28,901 nucleotides of DNA from Pseudomonadota bacterium (GCA_043825875.1 JBDRRF010000040.1:1-28901); one strand, 5' to 3'; positions 5,252 to 20,913 are shown, counted from the first letter of the stretch. A program made the numbers and translations. The notes: a model not told the origin generated them from the sequence alone.

Positions 5252-5253
5252 TA

Positions 5254-5322: not shown

Positions 5323-5379
5323 GCTTAGTTGTAAACTGATACCCGGTTAGTGTAACTGACAGGGCGGAGCTATATATAT

Positions 5380-5590
5380 CGGTTGACAGTTGGCGGTTGT
5401 CAGTTGGCGGTTGACAGTTGGCGGTTGACAGTTGGCGGTTGTCAGTTGACAGTTGACAGTTAACCGTAAACCGCTTTTATCCGTCAACTGTTAACTGTGA
5501 ACTGCAAACCGCTTTTACCCGTGAACCGTAAACCGCTTTTACCCGTCAACTGTTAACTGTAAACTGCAAACCGCTTTTACCCGTAACCCG
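5380..5590. repeat. Family C array: 12 CRGTTRN heptamers, then inverted CYGYNAA heptamers punctuated by CCGCTTTTAY 10-mers
   Basis: Units read directly at 5380-5463. Orientation switches at the GTTAAC palindrome; reverse units run 5464-5590. Confidence 0.95.
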
Positions 5591-5608
5591 ATAAAGGTAT
5601 AAAATTCT

Positions 5609-7300: not shown

Positions 7301-7349
7301 CAGTTATCGGTTGGCGGTTGACAGTTGACGGTTATCAGTTTCCAGTTGA
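7280..7349. repeat. Family C left-arm array, 10 CRGTTNN heptamers, overlapping the dehydrogenase stop
   Basis: CGGTTAC CGGTTGA CGGTTGA CAGTTAT CGGTTGG CGGTTGA CAGTTGA CGGTTAT CAGTTTC CAGTTGA. Confidence 0.92.
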
Positions 7350-7423
7350 CCAAGCACAAACGACTATATGGTTGCAGGAACTGCAATCGCTCTATATCCG
7401 GGCCATAGACGTTCCATTGGTAC

Positions 7424-7495
7424 CAGTCTGTTAAGAATTTTTCCTCTCAAAAAATTCTTCAAAAAACTCTGAGACTCTGTGCTCTCTGTGAGAGA
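7424..7495 (+). repeat. Family A repeat (AT hairpin plus CTCTGTG x3 core)
   Basis: AAGAATTTTT-cctctca-AAAAATTCTT hairpin at 7433-7459; core 7467-7495; near-identical to 19528-19599. Confidence 0.92.
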
Positions 7496-7544
7496 TAAAA
7501 TAACCATTAAATAACCGTAAACTGCATTAAGGATAATAATTACA

Positions 7545-8840
7545 ATGAATATAACCGTTGCAGGAACCGGATATGTTGGCCTTGTTACAGGAACCGGGTT
7601 TGCAAATTTAGGCAACAATGTAATATGTTTTGATATAGATCAAAAGAAAGTAGACACTCTTTCAAAAGGAGAGCTTACTATATATGAGCCGGGCCTTGAA
7701 GAGATTTTTAAAAGAAATATTAAAACCGGAAGGCTGATCTTTACATCAGATCCCCAAAAAGCTGTAAAAGAATCCAAAATCATTTTAATCTGTGTGAATA
7801 CTCCTTGTAATCATATGCAGGAAGCCGATTTAACCTCGGTAGAAAATGTTGCAAAGCAGATAGGTAAGTTTATGAACGGCTACAAGGTAGTTGTAAATAA
7901 AAGCACGGTGCCTGTCGGAACTGCCGAATTTGTCAGAAATATTATAAAATCAAATCAGAAAAAAAAGATTGAGTTTGATGTGGTTTCAAATCCGGAATTT
8001 TTAAGAGAAGGGGCTGCTGTAAAAGATTTCGAGAATCCGGACAGAATCATAATCGGAACAGACAGCAAAAAAGCTGAAAAAATAATGGTTTCACTTTACC
8101 GGTCTGTCGCAAGAACCGGAAGGCCTATAATGCTTACTGATATAAAGAGTGCCGAAATAATAAAATACGCCGGTAATGCAATGCTTGCAACAAGAATAAG
8201 TTTTATGAATCAGCTGTCTTATTTATGCGATAAAACAGGCGCAAATATCAGGGATGTTTCCAAAGGCCTTGGACTTGACGGCAGAATCGGTCCGCGTTTT
8301 CTGCATGCAGGCATAGGCTATGGTGGAAGCTGCTTTCCCAAGGATGTAAAAGCTCTTATATCTACTTTAAAAAAACATAAATGCGATTCTGATCTTTTTG
8401 AAGCAGTTGACAGAATTAATGAAAAGCAAAAAAGCGTACCGGTAGAAAAACTCAAACCTATTATGAAATTCAAAGGTGCTACAATTGCTGTCTGGGGACT
8501 TTCTTTCAAGCCAAAAACAGACGATATAAGAGACGCTCCATCACTTAAAATAATCGGGGAGCTTCAAAAACTGGGGGCAACAATTCATGCCTATGATCCC
8601 ATTGCAATGGAAAACGCCGGAAAAGTTTTGAAAAAAGTCATACTTTTTGAAAATCCTTATGATGCAGCTAAAAGCTGTGATGCTCTTATTGTTGCAACCG
8701 AATGGGATGAATTCAGAAATATTGATATGAAAACAGTAAAATCGCTTATGAAAAAACCCATCATTGTTGACGGAAGGAATATATACGACCGGGATGAACT
8801 GAAAAAACTTGGTTTCACATATTTAGGAATCGGAAGATAA
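7545..8840 (+). CDS. ugd: UDP-glucose 6-dehydrogenase
   Basis: GTGYVGL, KSTVPVGT, SNPEFLREG, GYGGSCFPKD, GLSFKPKTDDIRDAP, DGRNIY. Confidence 0.93.
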   Translation: MNITVAGTGYVGLVTGTGFANLGNNVICFDIDQKKVDTLSKGELTIYEPGLEEIFKRNIKTGRLIFTSDPQKAVKESKIILICVNTPCNHMQEADLTSVENVAKQIGKFMNGYKVVVNKSTVPVGTAEFVRNIIKSNQKKKIEFDVVSNPEFLREGAAVKDFENPDRIIIGTDSKKAEKIMVSLYRSVARTGRPIMLTDIKSAEIIKYAGNAMLATRISFMNQLSYLCDKTGANIRDVSKGLGLDGRIGPRFLHAGIGYGGSCFPKDVKALISTLKKHKCDSDLFEAVDRINEKQKSVPVEKLKPIMKFKGATIAVWGLSFKPKTDDIRDAPSLKIIGELQKLGATIHAYDPIAMENAGKVLKKVILFENPYDAAKSCDALIVATEWDEFRNIDMKTVKSLMKKPIIVDGRNIYDRDELKKLGFTYLGIGR

Positions 8841-8860
8841 AAGTCAATGCAAGAGGTTAA

Positions 8861-8986
8861 TTTGCAGTGAGAATATTTAGCCGCCGACCGACGCAGACAT
8901 AAACAGACAAAATATCTGCGAACGTCCGCGCTTGTCTGCGGCTAACATGAAGCACATCTGTAAAACCTGCTTTTGTCTGCGGCAAA
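8861..8986. repeat. Family B composite element (left arm TTAGCCGCCGACC..., right-arm 34-mer at 8912-8945)
   Basis: About 125 bp, colinear with 11167-11295. The left arm is the inverse of the 34-mer ATATCTGCGAACGTCCGCGCTTGTCTGCGGCTAA. Confidence 0.9.
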
Positions 8987-8996
8987 TCAAACTATC

Positions 8997-9386
8997 ATGG
9001 ATATAAACGACATAACATATAAGATCAATGGCGCTATATATGAAGTCAATCGTGTTCTCGGTCCGGGCTTCCTGGAAAAGGTATATGAGAACGCCCTGTT
9101 GATAGAACTTCGCGAAACAGGCTTGAAAACGGAAAATCAGGTGCCGGTAGAAGTCAAATACAAAGGTCATAGTGTCGGAAACTACCTTGCAGATTTGTTG
9201 GTTGAGGAAAAAGTAATTATAGAACTTAAAACAGTCGAAAGTATAACCAAATTACATGAAGCGCAATTATTGAACTATCTTAAAGCAACAAATATTAAAG
9301 TTGGGCTGTTAGTAAATTTCCAGAATGTGAAGGCTCAAATAAAAAGAATGGTGTTAGGTTTGCAGGAAGATCATGACAGTTTTTAG
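8997..9386 (+). CDS. GxxExxY family protein (PD-(D/E)XK nuclease-like fold)
   Basis: GPGFLEKVYE (GxxExxY), ADLLVEEKVIIELK, QLLNYLK...GLLVNF. Start moved to ATG 8997 because the paralog at 19611 also begins MDIN and the ORF-track start lies within the repeat. Confidence 0.92.
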   Translation: MDINDITYKINGAIYEVNRVLGPGFLEKVYENALLIELRETGLKTENQVPVEVKYKGHSVGNYLADLLVEEKVIIELKTVESITKLHEAQLLNYLKATNIKVGLLVNFQNVKAQIKRMVLGLQEDHDSF

Positions 9387-9410
9387 TCTGTGTCAGGTCG
9401 ACAGACTAAA

Positions 9411-9485
9411 ATATCTGCGAATGTCCGCGCTTGTCTGCGGCTAAAGATATAATATCTGCGAACGTCTGCGCTTGTCTGCGGCTAA
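9411..9485 (+). repeat. Two tandem family B 34-mers
   Basis: 9411-9444 and 9452-9485 each differ by one base from 8912-8945. They are preceded by a perfect 11-bp stem, 9381-9391/9401-9411. Confidence 0.95.
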
Positions 9486-9495
9486 TATGAAATTT

Positions 9496-9554
9496 AATTT
9501 TTCCTCTCAAAAAATTCTTAAAAATAACTCTGTGACTCTGTGTTCTCTGTGAGA
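9496..9554 (+). repeat. Family A repeat
   Basis: AATTTTTCCTCTCAAAAAATTCTT...CTCTGTGACTCTGTGTTCTCTGTGAGA (core 9528-9554). Confidence 0.93.
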
Positions 9555-9593
9555 AACAAAAAAAGTATTTAATAATTTTAAAATAATACCATA

Positions 9594-9896
9594 ATGCAAA
9601 AAGAACTTACTTATACCAATATAATAAATAGTTTAAAAGCTGAAAAGGACTTTCTTTGCAAAGAATATGGTGTTATTGAAATCGGCTTATTCGGTTCATA
9701 TGCCTTTGGAACTCCAAATAAAGACAGCGACATTGATCTTTTAATTGAATTCAAAGAACCAAAGTTTGAACATCTTGCCGGACTTATAATTTATCTAGAA
9801 AATAAATTTAATAAAAAGATTGAAATAATAAGAAAAAGTAAAAATATCAAAAGCCGGTTTATTCAAGGTATAGAAAATAAAGTTATTTATGTCTGA
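9594..9896 (+). CDS. Minimal nucleotidyltransferase (MNT) antitoxin, MntA-like
   Basis: GLFGSYAFG...DSDIDLLIE (GS plus DxD); overlaps the downstream HEPN gene. Confidence 0.88.
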   Translation: MQKELTYTNIINSLKAEKDFLCKEYGVIEIGLFGSYAFGTPNKDSDIDLLIEFKEPKFEHLAGLIIYLENKFNKKIEIIRKSKNIKSRFIQGIENKVIYV

Positions 9897-10254
9897 TAAT
9901 TTTACAACTGATAATTTCCAAAGTATTTTAGAAGCGATACAATTGATTGAAGAAAGGTTTGTTGAAGTTAGTCAAGCTGGAGATTTTGTTTTGTCCCCTC
10001 ACGGTGTTATTATACTCGATTCAATAGCCATGAGACTGCAAGTAATTGGAGAATTAGTTAAAAAAATCGAAAAATCAGATCGGTCTCTTCTTGATAAATA
10101 TTCGAATATTAAATGGGATTTGATTATCAGATTAAGAGATATTATATCTCACCACTATGCTGTTATTGACCATGAAATAATTTATGATATATGCAAAAAT
10201 CATATTCCTCCACTAAAAGCATCAGTTTTAAAAATTCTTGAAAAAACTCTGTAA
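9889..10254 (+). CDS. HEPN (DUF86/HepT-like) RNase toxin
   Basis: LQVIGELVK, W..I.RLRDIISHHY (RX4HXY); paired with MNT. Confidence 0.88.
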   Translation: MSDNFTTDNFQSILEAIQLIEERFVEVSQAGDFVLSPHGVIILDSIAMRLQVIGELVKKIEKSDRSLLDKYSNIKWDLIIRLRDIISHHYAVIDHEIIYDICKNHIPPLKASVLKILEKTL

Positions 10255-10275
10255 CTCTGTACTCTCTGTAAGAGA
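10230..10275 (+). repeat. Family A repeat overlapping the HEPN 3' end
   Basis: AAAAATTCTTGAAAAAACTCTGTAACTCTGTACTCTCTGTAAGAGA encodes KILEKTL-stop. Confidence 0.88.
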
Positions 10276-10324
10276 TTTAAAAGATACAAGGCACAAGTTT
10301 ATAAACTTTACGGTTATCGATTTA

Positions 10325-10394
10325 CTGTTTATTGTTAACTGTCAACCGTTAACCGTAAACCGTTTTTCTGCGACTCTGTGTTCTCTGTGAGAGA
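10325..10394 (+). repeat. Family C right-arm heptamers fused to a family A core
   Basis: CTGTTTA TTGTTAA CTGTCAA CCGTTAA CCGTAAA, then TTCTGCGACTCTGTGTTCTCTGTGAGAGA (10366-10394). Confidence 0.88.
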
Positions 10395-10424
10395 CAAGTG
10401 AAAATTTGATAATTTTTTGCCATT

Positions 10425-10447
10425 TGTATATATTCATTGTATATACA
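10425..10447. promoter_or_regulatory. Putative vapBC operator palindrome
   Basis: TGTATATA-N7-TATATACA perfect inverted repeat just upstream of the vapB SD (GGAG). Confidence 0.65.
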
Positions 10448-10465
10448 TAATAGATCGGAGTAACT

Positions 10466-10696
10466 ACGAACACAGCAAAAATTTTTAAAAGCGGGAATTC
10501 TCAGGCAGTAAGATTACCAAAATAATTTCAATTTGCTACCTCAGAGGTTCAAATTTTTCGAAGAGGTGATGAGGTAATTCTTAAAAAAAGCCCAAGAAAT
10601 TTAACCCGTGTATTTGAACTGCTCACCGGATTATCAGTTGATTTTATGGAAAATGGCAGACAGCAACCACCAGTTCAGGAACGGGAACCCTTTTAA
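10466..10696 (+). pseudogene. vapB: AbrB/MazE-type VapB antitoxin pseudogene
   Basis: Manual translation (ACG)NTAKIFKSGNSQAVRLPK*FQF...RRGDEVIL...QEREPF*. The start codon is ACG and there is an in-frame TAA at 10523-10525. Confidence 0.88.
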
Positions 10697-11090
10697 TGTT
10701 CATGCTCGACACCAATATTTGCATTTACATTATTAAACATAAGCCAACGAGCGTACAAAAGCGTTTTAAGATGCTACAGCCCGGGCAGCTTGCAATGTCT
10801 GCCATAACATTTGCCGAATTAATGAATGGTGCAAAAAAAGCCAACAAATTGAGGCAAACACAGCAAAACTAATTGAATTGGCCGAACTGATTAAAATTTA
10901 TCCTTTTGATAAAAATGCCGCAGTTTTTTATGGCGATGTACGTTCAGCCCTTGAGAAAAAGGGAAAAGTAATTGGAAGCAATGATTTGTTGATCGCTGCT
11001 CATGCTTTAAGCCTTAATTTGATATTAGTGACAAATAATGAAAAAGAATTCAAACGAGTTGATGGACTAAAAATAGAATACTGGGTATAA
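10696..11090 (+). pseudogene. vapC: PIN-domain VapC toxin, frameshifted
   Basis: MFMLDTNICIYIIK...SAITFAELMNGAKK, then a frameshift at an A7 run (10833-10839; A8 restores frame) into the frame with IGSNDLLIAAHA...LVTNNEKEFKRV. TAATG coupling with vapB. Confidence 0.9.
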
Positions 11091-11109
11091 GATCAACAAT
11101 TCTGTACAC

Positions 11110-11161
11110 TTCACTCAAAATTTCTTGAAAAAACTTCACAACTCTGAGGTCTCTGTGAGAG
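11110..11161 (+). repeat. Family A repeat (degenerate)
   Basis: CTCAAAATTTCTTGAAAAAAC...ACTCTGAGGTCTCTGTGAGAG. Confidence 0.8.
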
Positions 11162-11166
11162 TTTGT

Positions 11167-11394
11167 TTTGCAGTAAAAATATTCAGCCGCCGACCAACGC
11201 AAACAAACACAAACTTTATAATATCTGCGAACATCCGCGTTTGTCTGCGGCTAACATGAAGCGCGTCTGTTAAATTTGCTTATGTCTGCGGCAAAGATGA
11301 AATTAAATTTTTCTCCTCTGCCCCGCTAAATTCCAAAGAACTATTAAACTGGGGGCAAAAACTCTTAAACAAACTCTGAACTCTCTGTCAGAGA
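11167..11394. repeat. Family B composite element joined directly to a family A repeat (no gene between), with a 36-nt insert at 11320-11355
   Basis: 11167-11295 matches 8861-8986. The following ATGAAATTAAATTTTTCTCCTCT matches 9487-9507. Confidence 0.85.
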
Positions 11395-11408
11395 TAAAAA
11401 GAGGATAT

Positions 11409-11642
11409 ATGGATATTATGTTTGATCGAATAACCATTGATCCGCAAGTCATGAACGGGCAACCATGTCTGCGTAATTTGCGACTGACTGTTAGAAGAGT
11501 TGTGGAAGCTGTCGCGTTATATCCTGACTGGAAGGATCTACATGCTGAATACCCTGAACTTGAAAAAGAAGATATTTATCAGGCTCTGGCTTTTGCAGCA
11601 AGAAATCTTGACAGCCAAATTATTCCACTAGAGGCAGCTTGA
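11409..11642 (+). CDS. DUF433 family protein (putative antitoxin)
   Basis: RITIDPQVMNGQPCLRNLRLTV...EYPELEKEDIYQALAFAA. Confidence 0.88.
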   Translation: MDIMFDRITIDPQVMNGQPCLRNLRLTVRRVVEAVALYPDWKDLHAEYPELEKEDIYQALAFAARNLDSQIIPLEAA

Positions 11643-12022
11643 ACCGTATTTTACTTGATCAGGGTCTACCCCGAACAGCAGCAAATATTCTGCGTGATAA
11701 AGGATGGGATATATTACACACGGGGGACATAGGACTTAGCAGAGCTTCCGATCAGGAAATATTGGCTTATGCCCGTCTTGAAAAAAGGATGATCATTACT
11801 TTAGATGCCGATTTTCATGCGATTTTAGCAGTGGAAAATGCAAAATCTCCTTCAGTAATCAGACTACGGTATGAGGGGCTAAAAGGTCAGGCATTAGCAA
11901 ACTTAATTGAGACAATATGGCCAAGAATTCAGATGCAATTGGAGTCAGGTGCAATGGTAACAGTAACAAGTAAATCAATCAGAATCCGAAAGATTCCAAT
12001 AATAGATACAACTACCCTATAA
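11639..12022 (+). CDS. DUF5615 PIN-like protein (putative toxin)
   Basis: ILLDQGLP, ASDQEIL, IITLDADF; TTG start overlapping the DUF433 stop. Confidence 0.85.
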   Translation: MNRILLDQGLPRTAANILRDKGWDILHTGDIGLSRASDQEILAYARLEKRMIITLDADFHAILAVENAKSPSVIRLRYEGLKGQALANLIETIWPRIQMQLESGAMVTVTSKSIRIRKIPIIDTTTL

Positions 12023-12077
12023 AAACCTGACTGTCATGCTTTACTATGAACTATTAACTATCTTTCTCTTTAGACTT

Positions 12078-12188
12078 CCGTTAACTGTAAACCGTAAACC
12101 GTCAACCGCTTTTATCCGTCAACTGTAAACCGTAAACCGCTTTTAACCGTAAACCGCTTTTAACCGTAAACTGTAAACCGCTTCTACT
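12078..12188 (+). repeat. Family C right-arm array upstream of the four-helix-bundle gene
   Basis: CYGTNAA heptamers plus CCGCTTYTAN 10-mers running up to ATG 12189. Confidence 0.93.
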
Positions 12189-12539
12189 ATGTCCTCTTCT
12201 TTCGAAGATTTAGATGTCTGGAAAAAATCATGCGAATTATCAGTACGTCTTTATGAGTTGCTGAGAAACTGCCGTGATTACGGAATAAAAGATCAAATGC
12301 TCCGTTCATCCATATCTATCCCATCTAATATTGCTGAAGGAGCCGAAAGAAAAAGCACCCCGGATTTCAAGAGATTTATAAACATAGCTCTTGGTTCAGC
12401 TGCCGAGCTAAGAACACAGGTCTATATTTCAAAACAAGTAAACATTTTATCTGATAAAGTTGCTGAAGGACTGATAGAAGAATTAAAATCCATATCAAAA
12501 ATGCTCCAGCGGCTGCACAGTTCATTAAAAGAAAGATAA
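12189..12539 (+). CDS. Four helix bundle protein (23S rRNA-IVP-like family)
   Basis: FEDLDVWKKS, DQMLRSSISIPSNIAEGAER, FINIALGSAAELRTQ. Confidence 0.92.
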   Translation: MSSSFEDLDVWKKSCELSVRLYELLRNCRDYGIKDQMLRSSISIPSNIAEGAERKSTPDFKRFINIALGSAAELRTQVYISKQVNILSDKVAEGLIEELKSISKMLQRLHSSLKER

Positions 12540-12548
12540 CTACCTTTA

Positions 12549-12709
12549 CCGGAAACCATCAACTGTTAACTGCAAACCGCTTCTATCCGTCAACTGTGCA
12601 CCGTAAACTGTAAACCGCTTCTATCCGTCAACCGTCAACTGAAAACTGTCAACTGCTTTTAACCGTCAACCGCTTCTAACTGTCAACTGTAAACTGCAAA
12701 CCGCTTTTA
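12549..12709 (+). repeat. Family C right-arm array downstream of the four-helix-bundle gene
   Basis: Same heptamer/10-mer grammar, running up to ATG 12710. Confidence 0.93.
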
Positions 12710-14872
12710 ATGCATAAATTCTACTACATAATAAAATCATTTTTACCCCGCCGGCTACAGATTTATATCCGGCGCAAGGTTTTAATGAAAAAACACCATA
12801 AATATAAAGATGTCTGGCCTATAGACGAAAAGGCTGCAAAGCTTCCGGAAGGCTTTACAGGATGGCCGGATGGGAAAAAATTTGCTCTTGTCTTGACACA
12901 TGATGTAGAAAATGCAAAAGGACACGACAATTGTAAAAAACTGGCGGAAGTGGATGAAAGTTTTGGCTTCAGATCATCTTTTAATTTTGTTGCAAAAGAT
13001 TATCCTGTTTCACCAAAATTACGCCAATATCTTAATGAGCTGGGATTTGAGGTAGCTATACACGGCCTGCATCATGATAAAAATCCGTTCCGGTCAAAAG
13101 AAGTGTTTCAGGAGCAGGCTGTAGAAATTAACAACCATTTAAAGGAATGGAATGCTGTCGGTTTCCGGTGTCCAAGCATGTATCATGATCTTGAAATGTT
13201 GCATGAGTTAAATATTGAATACGATGCTTCCACATTTGATACTGATCCTTTTGAGCCTCAGCCTGATGGCTTGGGTACAATTTTTCCTTTCTGGGTGTCG
13301 GGTAATTCCAATCAACATTGGAGACCTTTGAAGAATGCTCAATTTTGCTCAGGTTCAAGGAAGGTGGAAATTCCAACCACAGGAATACATGAAGTTGAAT
13401 GTGAACCTGATGAAGAAATCGGGGAAAAGGGAGCGTTATGCAACGGTTTCAGGGGATATATTGAGCTTCCCTACACCCTGCCCCAGGATTTTTTATTGTA
13501 TGTACTTATGAAAGAAAAAAATATAGAAATATGGAAAAAGAAACTTGACTGGATTGCAGATAAAGGAGGTATGGCTCTTTTTATAACACATCCGAACTAC
13601 ATAAGTTTCAATGGAAATTTGACTTATGAAGAATTTCCCGTTAAGTATTATGCAGAGTTTTTGGAGTACATTAAATCAAAATATGAAGGACAATACTGGC
13701 ACGCATTACCAAGGGAGGTTTCACGCTTTTGGCGCACAAACATCGAACCCCAACCAGTTTCAAAGCATCTTGAACCTTGCGCCTTGCGCCATGAACCTTA
13801 TACTTCAAACCTTAAAATTTCTTTAATCGATCCGCTCAATGATCCTCGGTGGGATTCGTTTGTTACAAATCATCCTTTTGGATATATTTGTCATCTATCA
13901 GGTTGGAAACAAGTCCTTGAAGAAAGCTTTCCCCATATGAAGGGGCATTATTTAGCTCTTGTTGATTCCTCTGATAACAGTATACGGGCAGCTCTTCCTC
14001 TTTTTGAGGTAAGAAGCCTCATTACAGGGAACAGGCTGGTCAGTATTCCTTTTGCGACTATTTGTGATCCGCTTGTATCTTCGGATGAAGATATGACAAA
14101 ACTTCTTGATGCGGCAATAGATCTTTCAAAAAAACTTGGAACTTCTAAAATTGAAATAAGAACTAGTGCTTCAGAGCATCTTAATCAGGAGCATAGAACA
14201 GATTCAGTAATACATAATAAGTGCCATCAACTTTCACTTGAAGCCAGCCCTGAAGAACTGATTAAAACATTTAGCAAACAAGTAAAACGCAAGTTAAAAA
14301 AAACCTTAAATTATGATTTAACACCACAAATTGCTGAGCAGGATAATGAACTTAAAGAGTTTTATCATCTTTATGTTAAAACCAGAAAACGTCTGGGACT
14401 CCCTCCACAACCATATCTTTTTTTTAAATTACTGTGGGAAAAATTTTCACCGTCTAAAAATATTACCCTTCTTATGATCAGACATAAAGAAAAGTTAGCT
14501 GCCGGTTTAATAATGTATAAGTTCAAGGATCGCTGCTCATGGGACTATCTGGCATCGGATGTTAATTTTCAGCATCTGCATACAAATTATTTTGGCTTAT
14601 GGGAGGCAATAAAACAATCCTGTTTAGAAGGCTATAAGATATTCGATTTTGGGCGAACAGGAATAAGCAATGAAGGATTGATGGGATTTAAAAGACTTTG
14701 GGGAACAACGATTATAGATCTGCCTCAATATTATTATCCAAAAGAATTATGCTCGAATTTAAAACCTGCTGATTCATCAATGTCATATAAACTTATAAGG
14801 AAGGTTAATAAAATTGCACCTGATTCTGCTTTCCGCCTTATGGGGAAATTTTTATACAAGCATATTGGTTAA
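12710..14872 (+). CDS. Fusion: polysaccharide deacetylase-like (NodB/CE4) domain plus FemAB-like GNAT domain
   Basis: LTHDVE, IHGLHH, GFRCP and ELPYTLPQD in the N-half; SIPFATIC, RKRLGLPPQPY and FDFGRT...GLMGFK in the C-half. Confidence 0.82.
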   Translation: MHKFYYIIKSFLPRRLQIYIRRKVLMKKHHKYKDVWPIDEKAAKLPEGFTGWPDGKKFALVLTHDVENAKGHDNCKKLAEVDESFGFRSSFNFVAKDYPVSPKLRQYLNELGFEVAIHGLHHDKNPFRSKEVFQEQAVEINNHLKEWNAVGFRCPSMYHDLEMLHELNIEYDASTFDTDPFEPQPDGLGTIFPFWVSGNSNQHWRPLKNAQFCSGSRKVEIPTTGIHEVECEPDEEIGEKGALCNGFRGYIELPYTLPQDFLLYVLMKEKNIEIWKKKLDWIADKGGMALFITHPNYISFNGNLTYEEFPVKYYAEFLEYIKSKYEGQYWHALPREVSRFWRTNIEPQPVSKHLEPCALRHEPYTSNLKISLIDPLNDPRWDSFVTNHPFGYICHLSGWKQVLEESFPHMKGHYLALVDSSDNSIRAALPLFEVRSLITGNRLVSIPFATICDPLVSSDEDMTKLLDAAIDLSKKLGTSKIEIRTSASEHLNQEHRTDSVIHNKCHQLSLEASPEELIKTFSKQVKRKLKKTLNYDLTPQIAEQDNELKEFYHLYVKTRKRLGLPPQPYLFFKLLWEKFSPSKNITLLMIRHKEKLAAGLIMYKFKDRCSWDYLASDVNFQHLHTNYFGLWEAIKQSCLEGYKIFDFGRTGISNEGLMGFKRLWGTTIIDLPQYYYPKELCSNLKPADSSMSYKLIRKVNKIAPDSAFRLMGKFLYKHIG
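13321..13450. mobile_element. MITE-like element inserted in frame in the deacetylase domain
   Basis: Imperfect TIRs 13321-13340/13431-13450 (15/20); colinear with element 1-140. Confidence 0.75.
13768..13802 (+). repeat. Heptamer tandem repeat (CCTTGCG type) in the inter-domain linker
   Basis: TCTTGAA CCTTGCG CCTTGCG CCATGAA CCTTATA. Confidence 0.7.
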
Positions 14873-14890
14873 TCCGGAAAGTTTGGAAAT

Positions 14891-16141
14891 ATGAATACAA
14901 CCTACTCACATAAACAAAAGAACACTAGCTCACCAGCTTACAAACCCAAACGAATATGCATGCTGGCATATTCGTTCTATGATTCGGATGGTCGTATCAG
15001 GCGTTATGCAGAAACTTTGTCCAAGCGTGGCGATTATGTTGAAGCTATTTGTTTAAGAAAAGAAGGGCAGCCATATCATGAGGTTGTAGAAGGGGTTAAT
15101 GTATACAGAATACAGAAACGGATTATAGATGAAAAGAGTGAATCCTCATATCTGTTTAAACTAATAAAATTTTTAATTTTATCTATGGTAGTAATATCCA
15201 AAAGACATTTAAAAAATCCTTATGATTTGATACATGTTCATTCCGTTCCTGATTTTGAGGTGTTTGCTGCAATATTTCCAAAATTACGAGGCGCAAAAAT
15301 AATTTTAGATATCCATGATATTGTACCTGAATTTTATGCCAGCAAATTTAACAAAATCGAAACAAGTTATATATTTAAATTATTAGCAGCAGTTGAAAGG
15401 GCTTCAATTACATTTTCCGACCATGTAATTATTTCAAACCACATCTGGGGTAAAACACTTATTTCCCGATCGGTTTCGGAGCAAAAGTGTAGTGTAATAA
15501 TGAATTATCCTGATCCATCTATTTTTTATAAAAGGGTTAAAACCAGAAAAGATGATCGTTTGATCATTATTTACCCCGGTTCTCTTAACTGGCATCAGGG
15601 ATTAGATATTGCAATAAAAGCATTTGCCAAAATTAAAGATAAAATTCCGGAAGCTGATTTTTATATTTATGGACGTGGTCCGGAAAAAAATAATTTATTG
15701 GGTCTTGTTATGGAACTTGGACTACAGGAAAGGGTTTTTATTAAAGACACTCTTCCATTAGATCAAATTGTTGAGATTATGGCAAACGCAGATCTTGGGG
15801 TTGTTCCAAAAAGAAACAGTTTTTTCGGAGGAGAAGCATTTAGTACCAAAATTTGGGAATTTATGACTCTTGGTATCCCTGTAATTGTGTCAGATACTAA
15901 AATAGATAGATTCTATTTCAATGACTCAGTTGTAAAATTTTTCAAACCCGAAAATGAAGATGATTTATCAGAATCTATGTTGACACTTTTAACCAACAAG
16001 CAGTTAAGCGAATCCTTATCCCAAAAAGCAGAAGATTTTGTTTCAGACTTTAGTTGGGAAAAGAAAAAAAATGAATACCTAAACCTTGTGGATTCACTAA
16101 CTGGTAATAATTGTGTTCAAGAAAAGGTTAAAGTAGAATGA
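14891..16141 (+). CDS. GT4 family glycosyltransferase
   Basis: DGRIRRYAETL, ILDIHDIVPE, GLDIAIKAF, STKIWEFMTLGIPVIVS. Confidence 0.88.
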   Translation: MNTTYSHKQKNTSSPAYKPKRICMLAYSFYDSDGRIRRYAETLSKRGDYVEAICLRKEGQPYHEVVEGVNVYRIQKRIIDEKSESSYLFKLIKFLILSMVVISKRHLKNPYDLIHVHSVPDFEVFAAIFPKLRGAKIILDIHDIVPEFYASKFNKIETSYIFKLLAAVERASITFSDHVIISNHIWGKTLISRSVSEQKCSVIMNYPDPSIFYKRVKTRKDDRLIIIYPGSLNWHQGLDIAIKAFAKIKDKIPEADFYIYGRGPEKNNLLGLVMELGLQERVFIKDTLPLDQIVEIMANADLGVVPKRNSFFGGEAFSTKIWEFMTLGIPVIVSDTKIDRFYFNDSVVKFFKPENEDDLSESMLTLLTNKQLSESLSQKAEDFVSDFSWEKKKNEYLNLVDSLTGNNCVQEKVKVE

Positions 16142-17007
16142 TCACATATGTTTTGATAACTCCAGCTCGAAATGAAGAAGCAAATATTGAAAGGGTTATC
16201 ACATCAGTAATTAAACAAACTGTTTTGCCGGTGAAATGGGTTATTGTAAGTGATGGCTCAACCGACCGAACTGATGAGATCGTAGAAAAATATATTAAAG
16301 AAAATCCATGGATAGAATTATTGAGAATGCCGGAACATGCTGATCGTCAGTTTGCAGCTAAAGTTCATTGCTTTAATGCGGGATATAATAAAGTTAAAAC
16401 ATTGAATTATGATATAATCGCAAATCTTGACGCAGATATTTCGTTTGAAAAAGATTATTTTGAATTCCTTATCTCAAAATTTAATGAGAATACAAAATTA
16501 GGTGTTGTCGGAACACCCTTTGTTGAAAACGGTCTGCATTACGATTACAGATTTACAAATATTGAACATGTTTCCGGTGCATGTCAATTATTCAGACGTG
16601 AATGTTTTGAAGAAATTGGGGGGTATATTCCTATAAAGAGTGGTGGCATTGATTGGGTAGCTGTAACTACCGCAAGGATGAAAGGCTGGAAAACCAGAAC
16701 ATTTACCGAAAAAGTTTGCTATCACCATCGAAAGATGGGAACCGGAAACACTTCTGCTTTGTTGACTTGGTTCAGGCAGGGTCAAAAGGATTATTTTTGG
16801 GGCAACCATCCTTTTTGGGAAATTTTCAGAGCTTCCTATCAAATGATCAAAAAACCCTTTATTATTGGTGGATCATTTCTATTCTTCGGATTTGCATGGG
16901 CAAGCCTAAAAAGAATAAAAAGACCCATATCAGAAGAACTTATGAAATTTATTCGCTGTGAACAGATGAACAGGCTAAAAAAAGCGCTCAAACTGAAGAG
17001 TTTCTAG
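16138..17007 (+). CDS. GT2 family glycosyltransferase
   Basis: ITPARNEE, VSDGSTD, NLDAD, FRRECFEEIGG. Confidence 0.9.
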   Translation: MITYVLITPARNEEANIERVITSVIKQTVLPVKWVIVSDGSTDRTDEIVEKYIKENPWIELLRMPEHADRQFAAKVHCFNAGYNKVKTLNYDIIANLDADISFEKDYFEFLISKFNENTKLGVVGTPFVENGLHYDYRFTNIEHVSGACQLFRRECFEEIGGYIPIKSGGIDWVAVTTARMKGWKTRTFTEKVCYHHRKMGTGNTSALLTWFRQGQKDYFWGNHPFWEIFRASYQMIKKPFIIGGSFLFFGFAWASLKRIKRPISEELMKFIRCEQMNRLKKALKLKSF

Positions 17008-17064
17008 CCGCAAACAAACGCAGAAAGAGATTTGATTAACGTTCAAATAAAACTTACCTGCGAT
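17005..17064. repeat. Family B left arm with about 45-nt extension; direct repeat of 19453-19517
   Basis: AGCCGCARACAAACGCAGAAAGASATTTG...GTTCAA...TTACCTGCGAT is shared by both copies. Confidence 0.85.
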
Positions 17065-17208
17065 GGTACAAACAAACTTACTACTGTTGAAAATATGAAA
17101 GACGACATAAACCGGATATTGGAAGGCAAAAACAAGCCTGGCGCAATTCCTGAACTCTGGGACGGCCGAACAAGCGAAAGAATCCTGAAAATATTGATGG
17201 ACTATTAA
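17065..17208 (+). pseudogene. wecB: C-terminal remnant of non-hydrolysing UDP-GlcNAc 2-epimerase
   Basis: Manual translation GTNKLTTVENMKDDINRILEGKNKPGAIPELWDGRTSERILKILMDY*. GTN.L and PELWDG...ERI are typical of the WecB C-terminus. Confidence 0.8.
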
Positions 17209-17212
17209 ATAA

Positions 17213-17277
17213 TCTCTCGCAGAGTCCGCAGAGATCACAAAGATTTTTCAGAATTTTTCAAAAGAAAATTCTGAAAA
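17213..17277 (-). repeat. Family A repeat in inverted orientation with AT hairpin
   Basis: TCTCTCGCAGAGTCCGCAGAGATCACAAAG (17213-17242), then a perfect 13-bp stem 17245-17257/17265-17277. Confidence 0.82.
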
Positions 17278-17357
17278 TATGTTATTCTGCAAATGCAAAA
17301 AAAACCATTTATATATCGGAGTTTTTCATAGGCATGTAAGTTTGTAAGGATTTTTCA

Positions 17358-17723
17358 ATGATTAAATTTGTAGCAGATGCGAATATTGAAAGAAAAATCG
17401 TAGATTGTCTGATAAAACTTGGATTTGATGTAAAATGGATTCCTGATTATAATTGTGAAATGAGTGATACAGATCTCTTAACAATGGCAACTAATGAAAA
17501 TCGCATTCTAATAACAAATGACAAAGACTTCGGTGAGATAGTTTTTTTACGGAAACAAAATTCCGCAGGTATAATACTTATAAGGGTTAAAGGACATAAA
17601 GCTGAAGAAAAAGTAAAAATGTTAGAAAAGCTTATGCTGAATTATAAAGAAAAGATACCTAATCATTTTTCGATTATAACCAAAACAAAGTTCAGATTTA
17701 TTCCGTTGGAGGATATACTATGA
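17358..17723 (+). CDS. DUF5615 PIN-like protein
   Basis: KFVADANIE, SDTDLL, LITNDKDFGE, GIILIR. Confidence 0.87.
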   Translation: MIKFVADANIERKIVDCLIKLGFDVKWIPDYNCEMSDTDLLTMATNENRILITNDKDFGEIVFLRKQNSAGIILIRVKGHKAEEKVKMLEKLMLNYKEKIPNHFSIITKTKFRFIPLEDIL

Positions 17724-17953
17724 AAGAAGAAGCCTTGCTTAAAAGAATTACCATAAATCCAAATATAATGTTAGGTAAACCGATAATTAAAGGCACCAGA
17801 TTGACAGTGGAGTTTATTATAGAAAAATTGGCTTACGGTGCTACCTATAATGATTTAAAAGAAGATTATCCCTTCCTTGATGAAGATGATATCCGTTCAG
17901 CACTACTATATGCAGCAAAATGTTTATCCCACGAAGAAGTCTATGCAGCTTAA
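17720..17953 (+). CDS. DUF433 family protein
   Basis: RITINPNIMLGKPIIKGTRLTV...DYPFLDEDDIRSALLYAA; ATGA overlap. Confidence 0.9.
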   Translation: MKEEALLKRITINPNIMLGKPIIKGTRLTVEFIIEKLAYGATYNDLKEDYPFLDEDDIRSALLYAAKCLSHEEVYAA

Positions 17954-17982
17954 TGGGAATTGTCTTTAACCGGCAATCGTTT

Positions 17983-18049
17983 TTCTGCGACTCTGTGTAC
18001 TCTGTGAGAAACAAAAAAACATCTCGCAGAGCACACGGAGATCACAAAG
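17983..18049. repeat. Back-to-back family A cores (forward 17983-18009, inverted 18022-18049)
   Basis: TTCTGCGACTCTGTGTACTCTGTGAGA-aacaaaaaaaca-TCTCGCAGAGCACACGGAGATCACAAAG, followed by the palindrome TTATAGAAC-G-GTTCTATAA at 18052-18070. Confidence 0.9.
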
Positions 18050-18071
18050 ATTTATAGAACGGTTCTATAAC

Positions 18072-18179
18072 ATGACAGTTTACAAAAAAGAACTGATAAC
18101 ATACTGGATAAATAGTTCCGATAATGATTTCAAGGCAATGATACATTTTTTTGAAAAAGGTGACTATGCATGGTCATAA
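18072..18179 (+). pseudogene. Truncated HEPN-domain gene (N-terminal 35 codons)
   Basis: MTVYKKELITYWINSSDNDFKAMIHFFEKGDYAWS* resembles the first helices of MNT-associated HEPN proteins and runs straight into an MNT gene. Confidence 0.65.
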
Positions 18180-18480
18180 AGGAATTGCTCCTGAAATAGC
18201 AATCAAATACATAGATTTTCTAAAAACAAGAAATCATAGTATTAAAAAAACTTATCTTTTTGGTTCTTATGCCAAAGAAACGTTTACTGATGACAGCGAT
18301 ATAGATTTAGCTATTGTATTTGACAACCTTTCCGATACATTCGATATGCAAGTTCTTTTAATGAAGCTTAGAAGAAAGTTCGATAATAAAATCGAACCAC
18401 ATGCTTTCAGAGATTCCGATTTTAATACTTCTAACCCTGTGGCTAATGAGATATTTAAATATGGGATCGAAATTATTTAA
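18166..18480 (+). CDS. Minimal nucleotidyltransferase (MNT) domain protein; 5' end uncertain
   Basis: YLFGSYAK...DSDIDLAIV, IEPH. The TTG at 18151 lies inside the HEPN remnant, so the in-frame ATG 18166 is used. Confidence 0.8.
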   Translation: MHGHKGIAPEIAIKYIDFLKTRNHSIKKTYLFGSYAKETFTDDSDIDLAIVFDNLSDTFDMQVLLMKLRRKFDNKIEPHAFRDSDFNTSNPVANEIFKYGIEII

Positions 18481-18502
18481 CTGCTATTTACTATACCTCA
18501 TT

Positions 18503-18624
18503 TCAAAAATTCTTGAAAAAACTCTGTGACTCTGTGTACTCTGGGAGAAACAAAATATCTCACAGAGTACACAAAGATTCTTAAATAACAACTCTGTTAT
18601 TATGTATACTCTATTAAAGATAAA
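18503..18624. repeat. Family A forward core (18522-18548), inverted partial core (18558-18576) and a decayed forward copy
   Basis: CAAAAATTCTTGAAAAAACTCTGTGACTCTGTGTACTCTGGGAGA...TCTCACAGAGTACACAAAG. Confidence 0.87.
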
Positions 18625-18733
18625 GATAGCTCATGAGTTCATAAGCTGTTAAGCTCATAAATAACGATCAGATAGCGATCTTAGCTGACCGCTGACAACT
18701 TTCCTTTTTTTATATATAATTTGGAGAATAATT

Positions 18734-18982
18734 ATGCAGAATTTACTGAATCGTATTACCTTTGATAAAGAGGTGCTTTGCGGAAAACCTATTATCCGTG
18801 GCATGAGGATATCAGTTGAAATGATATTGGAACTATTGGCCAGAGGGGCTTCCGAAGAAGAAATTCTACAAGACTATCCACTTCTTGAACCGGATGATCT
18901 TCGTGCTGTATTGCTCTATGCCCATAGCATGGTAGCCAGTGAAAATATCTTTGATCGATCTACAGATAGAAAAGCTTCATGA
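18734..18982 (+). CDS. DUF433 family protein
   Basis: RITFDKEVLCGKPIIRGMRISV...DYPLLEPDDLRAVLLYA; SD GGAG. Confidence 0.9.
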   Translation: MQNLLNRITFDKEVLCGKPIIRGMRISVEMILELLARGASEEEILQDYPLLEPDDLRAVLLYAHSMVASENIFDRSTDRKAS

Positions 18983-19338
18983 ATTTCTTGCTGGATGTCA
19001 ATGCAAGTGGAGTCATAGCTCATTTGTTGGTTAGCCTTGGACATGATGTAGCCGAGGTAAACAATAAAGATCCAAGAATGAGTGACAATGATATTTTAAA
19101 CTGGGCTGTAAGAGAACGTAGAATTATTATTACTACCGACAATGATTTCGAAGAAATGATCTGGCGGCAAGGTATGCCACATTATGGTATCTTACGTCTG
19201 GAAAATTTACCAAGGCATGACAGATTAATTCTTTTGCGTGATGCACTTGATTTCCATAGTCATGATTTAGAATCCGGATCTATTGTTATTGCACTTAGCT
19301 CAAAATTTCGCGTTCGCAAACCACAGCCCAGGGATTAA
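18979..19338 (+). CDS. DUF5615 PIN-like protein
   Basis: FLLDVN, SDNDIL, IITTDNDF, GILRL; ATGA overlap. Confidence 0.87.
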   Translation: MNFLLDVNASGVIAHLLVSLGHDVAEVNNKDPRMSDNDILNWAVRERRIIITTDNDFEEMIWRQGMPHYGILRLENLPRHDRLILLRDALDFHSHDLESGSIVIALSSKFRVRKPQPRD

Positions 19339-19342
19339 CCTT

Positions 19343-19599
19343 CCTGCGAAGCAGTATGACAGTTTTCAAGAATTTTCCTCTTGAAAAATTCTTGAAAAAT
19401 AACTCTGCGACTCCGTGCTCTCTGTGAGAGATTAATTTGCAATAAATATATTCAGCCGCAGACAAACGCAGAAAGACATTTGGTGAATGTTCAATTATAA
19501 GACAATTTACCTGCGATAGCAGCATGTCAGTCTATTAAGAATTTTTCCTCTCAAAAAATTCTTAAAAAAACTCTGTGACTCTGCGTTCTCTGTGAGAGA
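19343..19599 (+). repeat. Two full-length family A repeats (about 168-bp period) with a family B left arm between
   Basis: CCTGCGA..GCAGYATGWCAGT-hairpin-core at 19343-19431 and 19510-19599. Confidence 0.92.
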
Positions 19600-19610
19600 C
19601 AAAAATCATA

Positions 19611-19994
19611 ATGGACATAAATAAAATATCTTCAGATATAATTAAAGCAGCAATAAACGTACACAAAGAATTTGGCCCCGGGCTATTAGAATCTGTCTAT
19701 CAGTCCTGTATGATTATCGAACTATCTGAAATGGGCATAAATGTAAAAGCTGAGGTCTCCATACCAATAACATACAGGGGAAAAGATGTAACAGACCAGG
19801 GCTTCAGGATAGATCTTCTTGTCGAAGATTCCCTCATTGTTGAACTTAAATCTGTTGAGCAGATCAAAGACATACATAAAAAACAGTTATTAACATATTT
19901 GAAATTAGCCAATAAACCTTTAGGACTCCTGATAAACTTTAACGAAATATTGTTAAAAGACGGGTTAACCCGTATTATCAATGCCCCACATTGA
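19611..19994 (+). CDS. GxxExxY family protein (PD-(D/E)XK nuclease-like fold)
   Basis: GPGLLESVY, RIDLLVEDSLIVELKSV, QLLTYLK...GLLINF. Confidence 0.93.
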   Translation: MDINKISSDIIKAAINVHKEFGPGLLESVYQSCMIIELSEMGINVKAEVSIPITYRGKDVTDQGFRIDLLVEDSLIVELKSVEQIKDIHKKQLLTYLKLANKPLGLLINFNEILLKDGLTRIINAPH

Positions 19995-19995
19995 T

Positions 19996-20067
19996 TGTCA
20001 GTCTTTTAAGATTTCCTCTCAATAATTCTTAATAATAACTCTGTGACTCTGTGTTCTCTGTGAGAGA
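19996..20067 (+). repeat. Family A repeat closing the second island
   Basis: TGTCAGTCTTTTAAGATTTCCTCTC...CTCTGTGACTCTGTGTTCTCTGTGAGAGA, ending 6 nt before ATG 20074. Confidence 0.92.
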
Positions 20068-20073
20068 TAAAAT

Positions 20074-20913
20074 ATGTTTGATTTCCGTCTGGATCGTTTT
20101 TTAACATTATATTTTTTTCATCCTATATCAAAATACGTCCAGAATAAATTTAAGATTCCTATCCTGATGTATCATAGCATTTCTGAAGAAAGCGAAGATC
20201 ATATACACCCTTACTACCGAACAAATACGTCTCCTGCCGTTTTTGCAGAACATATGAGATTCCTTTCCGATAATGATTACTCTGTGATTGATCTTAAGAA
20301 GTTGAAAGATTGCTTTGAAGCAAAAAATAAATTAACCAAAAAATTTGTAGTAATCACATTTGATGATGGATATCGCAATTTTTATACAAAAGCATCCCCA
20401 ATTCTTCAAGAATATCATTATCCAGCCACAATTTTTTTACCAACAGATTACATTGGGAAATCGTTCCAAGAAAGACCGTGTTTGACCTGGGTTCAAGTCC
20501 GAGAGCTAAAAAAATTAGGGTATCATTTCGGATCACATACCGCAACCCATCCAAAGTTGTACCAGCTTTCAATGCCAAAAATTCGAGAGGAATTAACACG
20601 TTCAAAAACACAGATTGAAGACGCTCTTGGGGAAAATGTATCTACTTTTTCTTACCCATTCAGATTTCCGGAACAAGACCTCAAATTTGTTAGACTTCTT
20701 AAAGAAGAAATAGAGTTTGTAGGATATAAGACTGGTGTTACTACTATTATAGGCTGTGCTGAAATTGGGATGGACCAGCTATTTCTAAAAAGACTCCCCG
20801 CTAATTCGTTCGATGATTCTGCCCTCCTTGATGCAAAACTTAAAGGTTCCTATGATTTCATGCATGTTGCACAATACGCTTTTAAAGCTATAAAAAATAA
20901 TTGGATCGATTAA
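20074..20913 (+). CDS. Polysaccharide deacetylase (CE4, IcaB-like)
   Basis: PILMYHSI, ITFDDGY, GSHTATHP, FSYPF. Confidence 0.9.
   Translation: MFDFRLDRFLTLYFFHPISKYVQNKFKIPILMYHSISEESEDHIHPYYRTNTSPAVFAEHMRFLSDNDYSVIDLKKLKDCFEAKNKLTKKFVVITFDDGYRNFYTKASPILQEYHYPATIFLPTDYIGKSFQERPCLTWVQVRELKKLGYHFGSHTATHPKLYQLSMPKIREELTRSKTQIEDALGENVSTFSYPFRFPEQDLKFVRLLKEEIEFVGYKTGVTTIIGCAEIGMDQLFLKRLPANSFDDSALLDAKLKGSYDFMHVAQYAFKAIKNNWID

Follow-up and report, generated by a model that had tools for sequence, protein, structure and literature searches.

Repeat-bounded toxin-antitoxin cassette arrays in a polysaccharide operon as possible pile-ups of hairpin-armed, operon-riding cassettes

Several described systems bring small genes and short repeats together in bacterial genomes. 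Chromosomal integrons are described as rich in toxin-antitoxin (TA) cassettes (PMC13108822, PMC4889954). The dif (pdif) modules of Acinetobacter plasmids, which are recombinase-free and often carry TA genes, are reported to be bounded by short sites, moved by the host XerC/XerD and shuffled between replicons (PMC13141974, PMC6449649). In Neisseria, Ssn nucleases are reported to recognise a repeat, NTS, that occurs in hundreds of copies around genes (PMC11893778). The 23S rRNA intervening sequences (IVSs) of Coxiella and Leptospira, whose open reading frame (ORF) belongs to the S23p family (PF05635), are described in one account as sporadically distributed and as spreading by unknown means; the same account gives the ORF-bearing form a 28-bp stem of terminal inverted repeats that is cleaved by RNase III in vitro (PMC4990558). 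Here, we describe two arrays of small gene cassettes bounded by three types of repeat (A, B, and C) in the genome of a Pseudomonadota bacterium (GCA_043825875.1; 4.77 Mb, 118 contigs, 39% G+C), and we compare them with these systems. The arrays lie in JBDRRF010000040.1 (contig C40 in our numbering), which was analyzed over its entire 28.9 kb and is referred to as the window.

The window is one long plus-strand exopolysaccharide (EPS) operon, with genes for a sugar transferase, an aminotransferase, FemAB-like proteins, glycosyltransferases, a Wzy-like protein, and a pyruvyl transferase (Pfam), and this operon is interrupted twice. Island 1 (~7280-12705) holds, in order, ugd, a GxxExxY gene, an MNT-HEPN pair, a broken vapBC, a DUF433-DUF5615 pair, and a four-helix-bundle gene. 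Island 2 (~17005-20072) holds a 3' remnant of wecB, a DUF5615-DUF433 pair, an MNT gene with a possible HEPN stub 5' of it, a DUF433-DUF5615 pair, and a second GxxExxY gene. This content, taken from a Pfam scan of the 32 window ORFs, agrees in genes and order with the original prediction, which had been made from the sequence of the window alone, and adds ugd (7545-8840) to island 1. All 32 ORFs are on the plus strand and none contains a recombinase or transposase domain, also as predicted. By sequence family, the paired type II TA genes of the window are MNT/HepT, PIN with a vapB remnant, and DUF433/DUF5615 three times; Phd/PIN, ParE, and HicA are further TA families found in a second array on contig C56 and in relatives.

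GxxExxY and four-helix cassettes have colonized the gaps of this operon, multiplied arms interleave with TA operons, and repeats flank every cassette. We give roughly an even chance to the reading that the islands are local pile-ups of operon-riding, hairpin-armed cassettes that were multiplied locally and shuffled by recombination between their repeats.

The three repeats were recovered by a repeat search, nhmmer profiles, and a word map. Repeat A, 77 nt long, combines an AT-rich hairpin with three CTCTGTG-type words downstream of it. Repeat B (35 nt; four forward copies in the window) has three [A/G]TC[T/C]GCG words that recur every 10 nt, often with an inverted partial copy ahead of it, and C forms arrays of AAC[C/T]GT-type heptamers. 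All 11 predicted forward A cores were found in place by both the repeat search and nhmmer. Three inverted cores had also been proposed, of which the one at 17213 was significant (E 4e-9), whereas those at 18022 and 18558 were weak by profile (E ~0.4), yet are 83-90% direct copies of the first inverted copy. Word clusters were confined to intergenic gaps from 4089 to 20062, with none within the listed gene bodies and none past 20062 (word map). The C arrays therefore begin upstream of 7424, where the arrays had been thought to start (4089-4116, 5257-5575, and 7278-7333). The A hairpin has an 8-10 bp stem and the loop CCTCTCA, and it is preserved by two-sided changes in 7 of 15 pairs, a level reached by 0 of 500 shuffles, with slid controls lower. 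A second hairpin never varies and is therefore uninformative.

Scanning the whole genome with the A profile (nhmmer, E <= 0.0025) gave 17 copies, 12 in the window, three on C56, and one each on C42 and C31. The B profile (E <= 1.4e-5) gave eight, four in the window, four on C56, and none elsewhere. A and B are restricted to four loci and are not dispersed genome-wide, the outcome of a scan that the original prediction had put forward. On C56, the second array consists of seven small cassettes in one orientation, Phd-PIN and ParE among them, between a flippase gene and the exosortase gene epsH. Neither a GxxExxY nor a four-helix gene is interspersed with these seven cassettes, and the lack of GxxExxY argues against a dedicated GxxExxY-driven system; the genome's two intact GxxExxY genes are both in the window, and four-helix genes number six.

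Some further copies differ in their surroundings. At C56 6700-13800, at least three of the seven TA cassettes are flanked by an inverted 9-10-nt word, ATCCTGTCT(G) / (C)AGACAGGAT, so the arm design is not limited to nuclease or four-helix genes. Another four-helix gene (G000:C28:40250-40670, where G000 is the source genome) is flanked by other heptamer arrays of the AATCACA / AATCGCC type, and the copies on C56, C5, and C88 are without such word arrays. On C76 (~213400-216720), a four-helix remnant (54 of 106 profile positions) and a GxxExxY remnant in two fragments lie 3 kb apart; these may be a decayed island, with flanks that carry no word arrays.

We compared contigs with A or B matches from G002 (C105), G008 (C97/C104/C106), G011 (C225), G013 (C150/C206), and G016 (C85), all of the same genus, and from G017 (C7), which belongs to another family. 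A matches within the genus subset numbered 34 in G008, 14 in G013, six in G016, and two in G011; G002 had B only, and A was present but weaker in G017. At the orthologous EPS loci of the five same-genus genomes, cassettes differed, were reordered, or were absent, with repeats at the borders, as the original prediction had anticipated for such an alignment. In G011, window position 7279 is joined to 12722 within 48 nt, connecting the 563-aa gene to the 720-aa gene with no island 1, and past its GT2 glycosyltransferase gene, a remnant of ParE and one MNT gene are all that is present. G016 carries ugd, an intact vapBC, an intact 370-aa wecB, unknown genes, PIN_3, DUF2283, and DUF433-DUF5615. G013 carries Phd-PIN, MNT-HEPN, ParE, DUF433-DUF5615, Phd-ParE, and MazE-PIN, and its vapBC follows DUF433-DUF5615, the reverse of the window order. 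G008 carries HicA, DUF1902, MNT, DUF433, the same wecB remnant, DUF7718-DUF5647, vapB, MNT-HEPN, GxxExxY, and HicA, with MNT-HEPN and GxxExxY placed differently again. None of the 109 ORFs of the compared loci encodes a recombinase, and neither a GxxExxY nor a four-helix gene lies between cassettes in the compared stretches of the G013 arrays. Because congeners differ in their cassettes, the arrays are real variable regions.

The borders of the cassettes bear on how this variation arose. Among three genomes, MNT-HEPN homology sets in within one A copy and runs through to the end of the following A core. The sequence beyond A differs from copy to copy, and the spacers are mosaics of at least 10 recurring modules joined at short common stretches. 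In G008, the C56 Phd-PIN operon is found again between the modules that flank it on C56; in G013, Phd-PIN lies between direct copies of an unrelated ~110-nt repeat of 8-nt words, and homology between C56 and G013 ends at the -35 box and the stop codon. The end of the wecB deletion is the exact edge of a repeat module. Among 47 cassettes from seven genomes, 28 had an exact direct repeat of at least 11 nt in their 200-nt flanks and 11 an inverted one, while only 6-7 of 47 reached 9 nt in a shuffled-flank control. Borders inside A, mosaic spacers, and direct repeats fit recombination at variable repeat points better than one fixed crossover site. We infer that cassettes have probably been shuffled by recombination between repeats, both within the genome and after uptake of DNA from relatives.

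Two side observations concern A itself. The last codons and stop of the HEPN gene lie within A (10204-10254) in all three genomes compared. In G017, cassette-free A-like elements occur between genes of a shikimate operon (C7 ~6955-11810, 5' of the genes for DAHP synthase and EPSP synthase), and EPSP synthase, epimerase, and ThiF each appear split into two ORFs there.

The window genes belong to families that are found far more widely. A scan of genome contigs located GxxExxY relatives at 598 or more places in many phyla; among the matches listed, the closest were metagenome-assembled genomes labeled Pseudomonadota, Verrucomicrobiota, delta proteobacterium, and Desulfobacteraceae. We kept 80 loci from many phyla, of which 67 had full flanks for word counts. 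The word TCTGYG is that of both A (CTCTGTG) and B (TCTGCG), and around GxxExxY genes it showed ~5-fold enrichment, in inverted orientation. Within the upstream 330 nt, CRCAGA occurred 73 times against 20 for TCTGYG, and within the downstream 330 nt, TCTGYG occurred 69 times against 25 for CRCAGA; control flanks 770-1100 nt away held 11-15 of each word. Four-helix relatives (494 places in metagenomes) had a similar design, in that 43 of 53 loci shared an inverted 6-mer at least twice on both flanks, compared with 2 of 29 controls, and C-type words had the same polarity around some of these relatives. Hence, the enrichment that had been put forward as a check was observed beside GxxExxY and four-helix genes. 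TA-like genes were rare next to GxxExxY, making up only 3 of the 40 small neighbors scanned (147 neighbors listed at 80 loci). The large gene ahead of GxxExxY reads in its direction at 49 of 51 loci, and on the downstream side 17 of 33 large neighbors do, indicating that GxxExxY cassettes ride behind another gene, in its sense. As a separate matter, we rejected the idea that GxxExxY travels with ugd, as a ugd relative was near 0 of the 80 loci; DegT was near three.

To judge from these sequences, all three repeats are elements of the arm type, belonging to two widespread families of cassettes, and also exist without a gene, because TCTGYG tracks GxxExxY, inverted C-type words track four-helix genes, the A hairpin is kept, and A-like elements occur free of cassettes. 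The gene-bearing forms would encode either the GxxExxY nuclease (with TCTGYG, as in A and B) or the four-helix protein (with ACNGTT-type words, as in C). The GxxExxY protein (PF13366) appears, in its sequence and its predicted model, to have the conserved E...D...(D/E)xK of PD-(D/E)XK nucleases: E27, D68, E78, and K80 are invariant in 63 sequences. The model (pLDDT 93.6) weakly resembles Cas4, lambda exonuclease, and Hjc-type PD-(D/E)XK nucleases (best E 1.8e-3), and a sequence search against solved structures found nothing (best E 0.54). The four-helix protein matches the solved structural-genomics entries 2gsc and 2rld.

The original prediction had gone further, proposing a dedicated system of cassette acquisition and excision in which the repeats are the sites and the GxxExxY and/or four-helix protein is the cognate factor; such a system would be akin to an integron without a tyrosine recombinase. 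Parts of that proposal are in keeping with our results. The arrays are co-oriented, TA-rich, and variable between congeners, the repeats are restricted to the arrays, and all seven genomes with A or B also have GxxExxY. The tie between TCTGYG and GxxExxY holds across phyla in a fixed orientation, the catalytic residues of the putative nuclease are invariant, and a conserved A hairpin is what would be expected of a structured site. However, none of this demonstrates a dedicated machine. Module junctions are mosaic, with no single point, and the Phd-PIN operon of G013 sits between unrelated repeats with homology stopping at its -35 box and stop codon. The C56 array is without GxxExxY and the genome has only two intact copies, TA-like genes are rare beside GxxExxY elsewhere, and the A-like elements of the shikimate operon hold no cassette. 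The wecB and vapBC remnants look like imprecise events, a nuclease by itself could not rejoin DNA, and most cassettes lie between direct repeats long enough for ordinary recombination. Therefore, we consider a dedicated system unlikely, whereas the variable arrays and the sequence link between repeats and GxxExxY stand.

A different account would be that two selfish layers merely coincide here, with TA modules gathering at EPS exchange hot spots and A, B, and C being neutral elements like repetitive extragenic palindromes (REPs) or miniature inverted-repeat transposable elements (MITEs), with no functional tie to GxxExxY, to the four-helix genes, or to the cassettes. The cassette-free A-like elements of the shikimate operon and the gene-less C hairpins at 5257-5575 would be in line with this, as would the in-frame insertion of a different, genome-wide MITE-like family in the 720-aa gene and the fact that EPS gene content itself varies among congeners. 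The genome also has 13 Y1 transposase matches (Y1_Tnp), which could move hairpin elements in trans. Yet none of the 13 is beside A or B and none is on C40, C56, or C31; the C42 match (~16300) is a fragment spanning 28 residues and lies ~5 kb away from that contig's A copy. Moreover, A and B occupy only four loci, and neither the oriented ~5-fold word enrichment at GxxExxY nor the inverted words at four-helix genes would be expected of unrelated elements. We regard this coincidence as rather unlikely.

The strand bias and folding of A could also indicate RNA elements, needed for processing, stabilizing, or translation coupling where cassettes interrupt the EPS transcript, with the arrays varying by ordinary gene flux. 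Almost every A copy lies on the gene strand (11 forward copies vs. one significant inverted copy in the window) and often ends 1-60 nt before a start codon (20072 before 20074; 19603 before 19611), and its hairpin is preserved by compensatory changes. GxxExxY nearly always reads in the sense of its upstream gene, and an rRNA IVS with the same four-helix ORF is described as excised by RNase III at its inverted-repeat stem (PMC4990558). Against this, no Rfam family matched the repeats (an Rfam scan of the window gave two chance-level matches at E <= 1, to plant microRNA and small nucleolar RNA models), the invariant second hairpin adds no information, and an RNA role alone would leave the words that track the nuclease gene unexplained. 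Because such a role is compatible with armed cassettes rather than exclusive of them, we think it improbable as the whole explanation.

Several observations weigh against the reading of the islands as piled-up armed cassettes. Of 41 related genomes, 25 have GxxExxY, counting all seven with A or B but also 18 of the 34 in which neither repeat had a clear match, and the genome-level link is therefore weak. At least two words on both sides were found in just 17 of the 67 GxxExxY loci, and other loci use other words. All fold matches of the GxxExxY protein are weaker than E 0.001. In the window, the four-helix gene lies between two C+ arrays and its inverted C- partner (7278-7333) is 4.7 kb upstream; direct repeats outnumber inverted ones in these arrays overall, unlike the arm-gene-arm design elsewhere. 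A is 91-96% alike between species compared with 79-94% for neighboring genes, a figure that best-of-many matching inflates for A, and pure neutral decay with recombination does not explain this high similarity. Some contigs of relatives with A or B hits also lie outside our comparison (G008 C105/C2, G013 C5/C85/C103/C3, and G017 C14/C10).

A further point against this reading is that no recombination event or clean excision joint was found in the contigs of four public sequencing runs, the source sample included. Source-sample contigs break at the repeats, and two other groundwater runs contain a relative with pieces ~90-95% alike in other module orders. The 15 joints shown were mostly short-sided (31-55 nt), and those checked end inside repeats, so they may reflect paralogous repeats or other organisms only. 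None of the five runs listed as containing this DNA was of RNA, and the RNA run examined gave only short, poorly matching pieces.

Of the systems introduced above, integrons are the most similar in appearance. Their cassettes are likewise small, co-oriented, and often TA pairs, each followed by a similar repeat, with content that varies between relatives. Integron integrases also exist in this genome, and the term "integrase-free" of the original prediction thus applies to the window but not to the genome. Four exceed the TIGR02249 cut-off (C51:167791-168738, C68:56602-57549, C107:658-1617, and C79:66182-67111). Those on C51 and C107 are near contig ends, as if arrays had broken the assembly, and the C79 integrase has a short array with three clear attC sites. 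Sites like attC with no integrase nearby were also seen on C109 (57-65 kb). We therefore weighed the possibility that the islands are decayed integron arrays, or clusters of attC sites lacking integrases (CALINs), served by the genome's four integrases, to which the two or more integrases near contig ends, the presence of IntI above the same cut-off in 11 of 17 genus genomes, and the TA richness of chromosomal integrons would lend some weight. But a profile of the three C79 attC sites matched C79, C109, C91, C57, and C89 and nothing on C40 or C56, and the R''/R' boxes of the C79 sites are absent from A and B by eye, in agreement with the earlier statement that A and B are unlike attC. A crude attC detector (R''/R' boxes plus folding) missed the three known C79 sites and, being invalid, was not used. 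Furthermore, the arrays are placed among operon genes and have no neighboring integrase, at least some cassettes appear to have their own promoters, and a given cassette can be bounded by other repeats in another genome. IntI was also rejected as a correlate of A and B, since some of the 11 genomes that have it are without either repeat. Altogether, a CALIN origin seems very improbable.

The pdif modules resemble island 2 in that inverted and then forward A copies surround three of its cassettes. Unlike pdif modules, the islands are chromosomal, lie inside an operon, and have repeats that are 35-330-nt mosaics. No dif-like core was found at the borders; the window held two matches against 2.3 expected, neither at a repeat, by a loose core motif that may not be the host's own. 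The REP/REPIN-RAYT and Ssn/NTS systems also pair a small gene with its own repeat family, in which gene-less copies outnumber gene-bearing ones. By contrast, the gene here is a PD-(D/E)XK-type GxxExxY rather than a Y1 transposase or a GIY-YIG nuclease, and A and B occupy four loci, whereas REP repeats are dispersed genome-wide. We treat integrons and CALINs, dif modules, REP/RAYT, and Ssn/NTS as working analogues; the attC sites, dif sites, and RAYT-flanking dispersed repeats that mark the first three were not found in the arrays.

The rRNA IVSs share more with the four-helix cassette. Both encode the same protein family. In the IVS, a small ORF lies within stem-forming inverted repeats as a sense insertion in a longer transcript, and inverted arms likewise flank 43 of 53 relatives of the window gene. 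However, the window copy is in an EPS operon rather than in 23S rRNA helix 25 or 45, lies between direct C arrays, and shares its array with TA and nuclease cassettes. The comparison fits the four-helix cassette by design, not by location.

The remaining features of the window are given here in order, with genes assigned by Pfam unless otherwise stated. Upstream of the predicted range, C-type heptamer words in the inverted sense lie in the gap between the DegT and FemAB-like genes (4089-4116, minus strand; word map). A C- and then a C+ array without a gene form large hairpins before the 563-aa UDP-glucose-dehydrogenase-like gene (5257-5575; word map). The left border of island 1 is a C- array (7278-7333, minus strand; repeat search and word map) that overlaps the last codons of the 563-aa gene and is absent in G011. 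A full copy of A, with hairpin and CTCTGTG words, follows at 7424-7500 (plus strand; repeat search and nhmmer), 5' of ugd (UDP-glucose 6-dehydrogenase, plus strand), an ordinary EPS gene with orthologues in G008, G013, and G016. The next gap, at 8877-8990, holds an inverted B arm (8877-8900), B (8911-8945), and an extra TCTGCG stretch, with a minus-strand hairpin (z -5.2). The first GxxExxY gene (PDDEXK_3, PD-(D/E)XK fold) is at 8997-9386 on the plus strand, with an ORF from TTG at 8973.

Downstream of it, still on the plus strand, B, B, and a hybrid A without the left half of its hairpin (9410-9561; repeat search and nhmmer) precede the MNT-HEPN (HepT) pair (9594-10254), which is 94.5% identical to a G008 cassette in another context. 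The segment 10204-10397 (repeat search and word map) contains A, a spacer module common to C56, C+ words, and an A core. The vapBC genes follow at 10450-11090 as pseudogenes, as had been proposed: PIN is split by a stop into two ORFs (10696-10872 and 10878-11090) and no vapB ORF of at least 50 aa is present; vapBC is intact in G013 and G016. Between 11110 and 11398 are A, inverted B, B, a spacer module, and an A core (repeat search and nhmmer), followed by a DUF433-DUF5615 pair common to G008 and G013 (11409-12022). A C+ array (12037-12182; repeat search and word map) lies 5' of the four-helix-bundle gene (12189-12539; 23S_rRNA_IVP, PF05635, E 7.9e-35), and the right border of island 1 is another C+ array (12548-12705) that abuts the start codon of the 720-aa FemAB-like gene. 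That gene (12710-14872) has an in-frame insert of ~165 nt at 13290-13455 that is absent from its orthologues in G011, G012, and G016. The insert belongs to a MITE-like family with 176 blastn high-scoring segment pairs on 80 of the 118 genome contigs, in translation it has matches at hundreds of sites in genomes from the same order, and a fragment of the family is also present at the window start (20-71).

Island 2 begins directly 3' of the GT2 stop with an inverted-B-like module and a spacer module (17005-17064); the same module follows GT2 in G011. The predicted wecB 3' remnant (17065-17208, plus strand) was borne out by alignment, with 35 of 44 residues identical to residues 325-368 of the intact G016 WecB. 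An inverted copy of A (17211-17272, minus strand; nhmmer E 4e-9) is followed by the DUF5615-DUF433 pair (17358-17953, plus strand), and an A core and then a weak inverted A core form a palindrome at 17984-18055 (repeat search and nhmmer). At 18072-18480 (plus strand), the MNT gene (18151-18480) is clear, whereas the HEPN remnant that had been proposed ahead of it is at most a hint (35 aa, E 0.16, below the cut-off). A and a weak inverted A core (18481-18582; repeat search and nhmmer) separate it from a DUF433-DUF5615 pair (18734-19338, plus strand). A, inverted-B and spacer modules, and A (19360-19603, plus strand; repeat search and nhmmer) then precede the second GxxExxY gene (19611-19994, plus strand; 89% protein identity to the G008 copy). 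The last A (19998-20072, plus strand; nhmmer) ends 1 nt before the start codon of a polysaccharide deacetylase gene, which places GAGAGA ~6 nt upstream of that start (20060-20076). Across 4000-20500, neither promoter-like sites (62 vs. 52.1 +/- 7.7 in shuffles) nor terminator-like sites (11 vs. 11.5 in shuffles) were enriched. Two good promoter-like sites lie before vapB (10406-10434) and before DUF433 (18692-18720, sigma-70-like), and at least some TA cassettes appear to carry their own promoters.

If the islands are pile-ups of armed cassettes, arms would multiply inside the EPS loci of the genus and interleave with TA operons, and each cassette would end up between near-identical, mostly direct repeats. 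Homologous or short-homology recombination between these repeats could then delete, duplicate, reorder, and exchange cassettes. By analogy with the rRNA IVS, as its source describes it (PMC4990558), arms in the transcript may form processed stems that insulate the cassette, allowing cassettes to sit in the operon with little polar damage. More tentatively, the arms might be a target in trans of the GxxExxY nuclease, whose breaks could, for instance, prompt gene conversion there, and the enzyme would thereby raise the rate of rearrangement or copy arms into new gaps.

The TA-bearing arrays, their variation within the genus, and the cross-phylum word test are new; in literature naming GxxExxY or PDDEXK_3/PF13366, judged by title, we found no published account of a small gene paired with word-array arms. 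We speculate, with considerable doubt, that GxxExxY nucleases and four-helix proteins with inverted arms make up an undescribed class of operon-riding mobile cassettes, whose arms the nuclease would recognize as hairpins or cruciforms of TCTGYG words, seeding their copying into new intergenic gaps. In this genus, the arms would then serve as a recombinase-free platform on which TA cassettes are captured, stored, and shuffled within surface-polysaccharide operons, an analogue of the integron with different chemistry.

Phages and diversifying selection bear heavily on surface-polysaccharide loci, which here are also depots of addiction and defense-type cassettes that differ between close species. 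The repeats that bound these cassettes tie a local oddity to a very widespread pairing of genes with word arms. If the nuclease recognizes the arms, they would represent a new kind of selfish element, which could explain the spread of rRNA intervening sequences and from which a nuclease specific for a structure or a sequence might be obtained. Otherwise, the arrays would still be a clear natural case of repeat-driven cassette shuffling without a dedicated recombinase.

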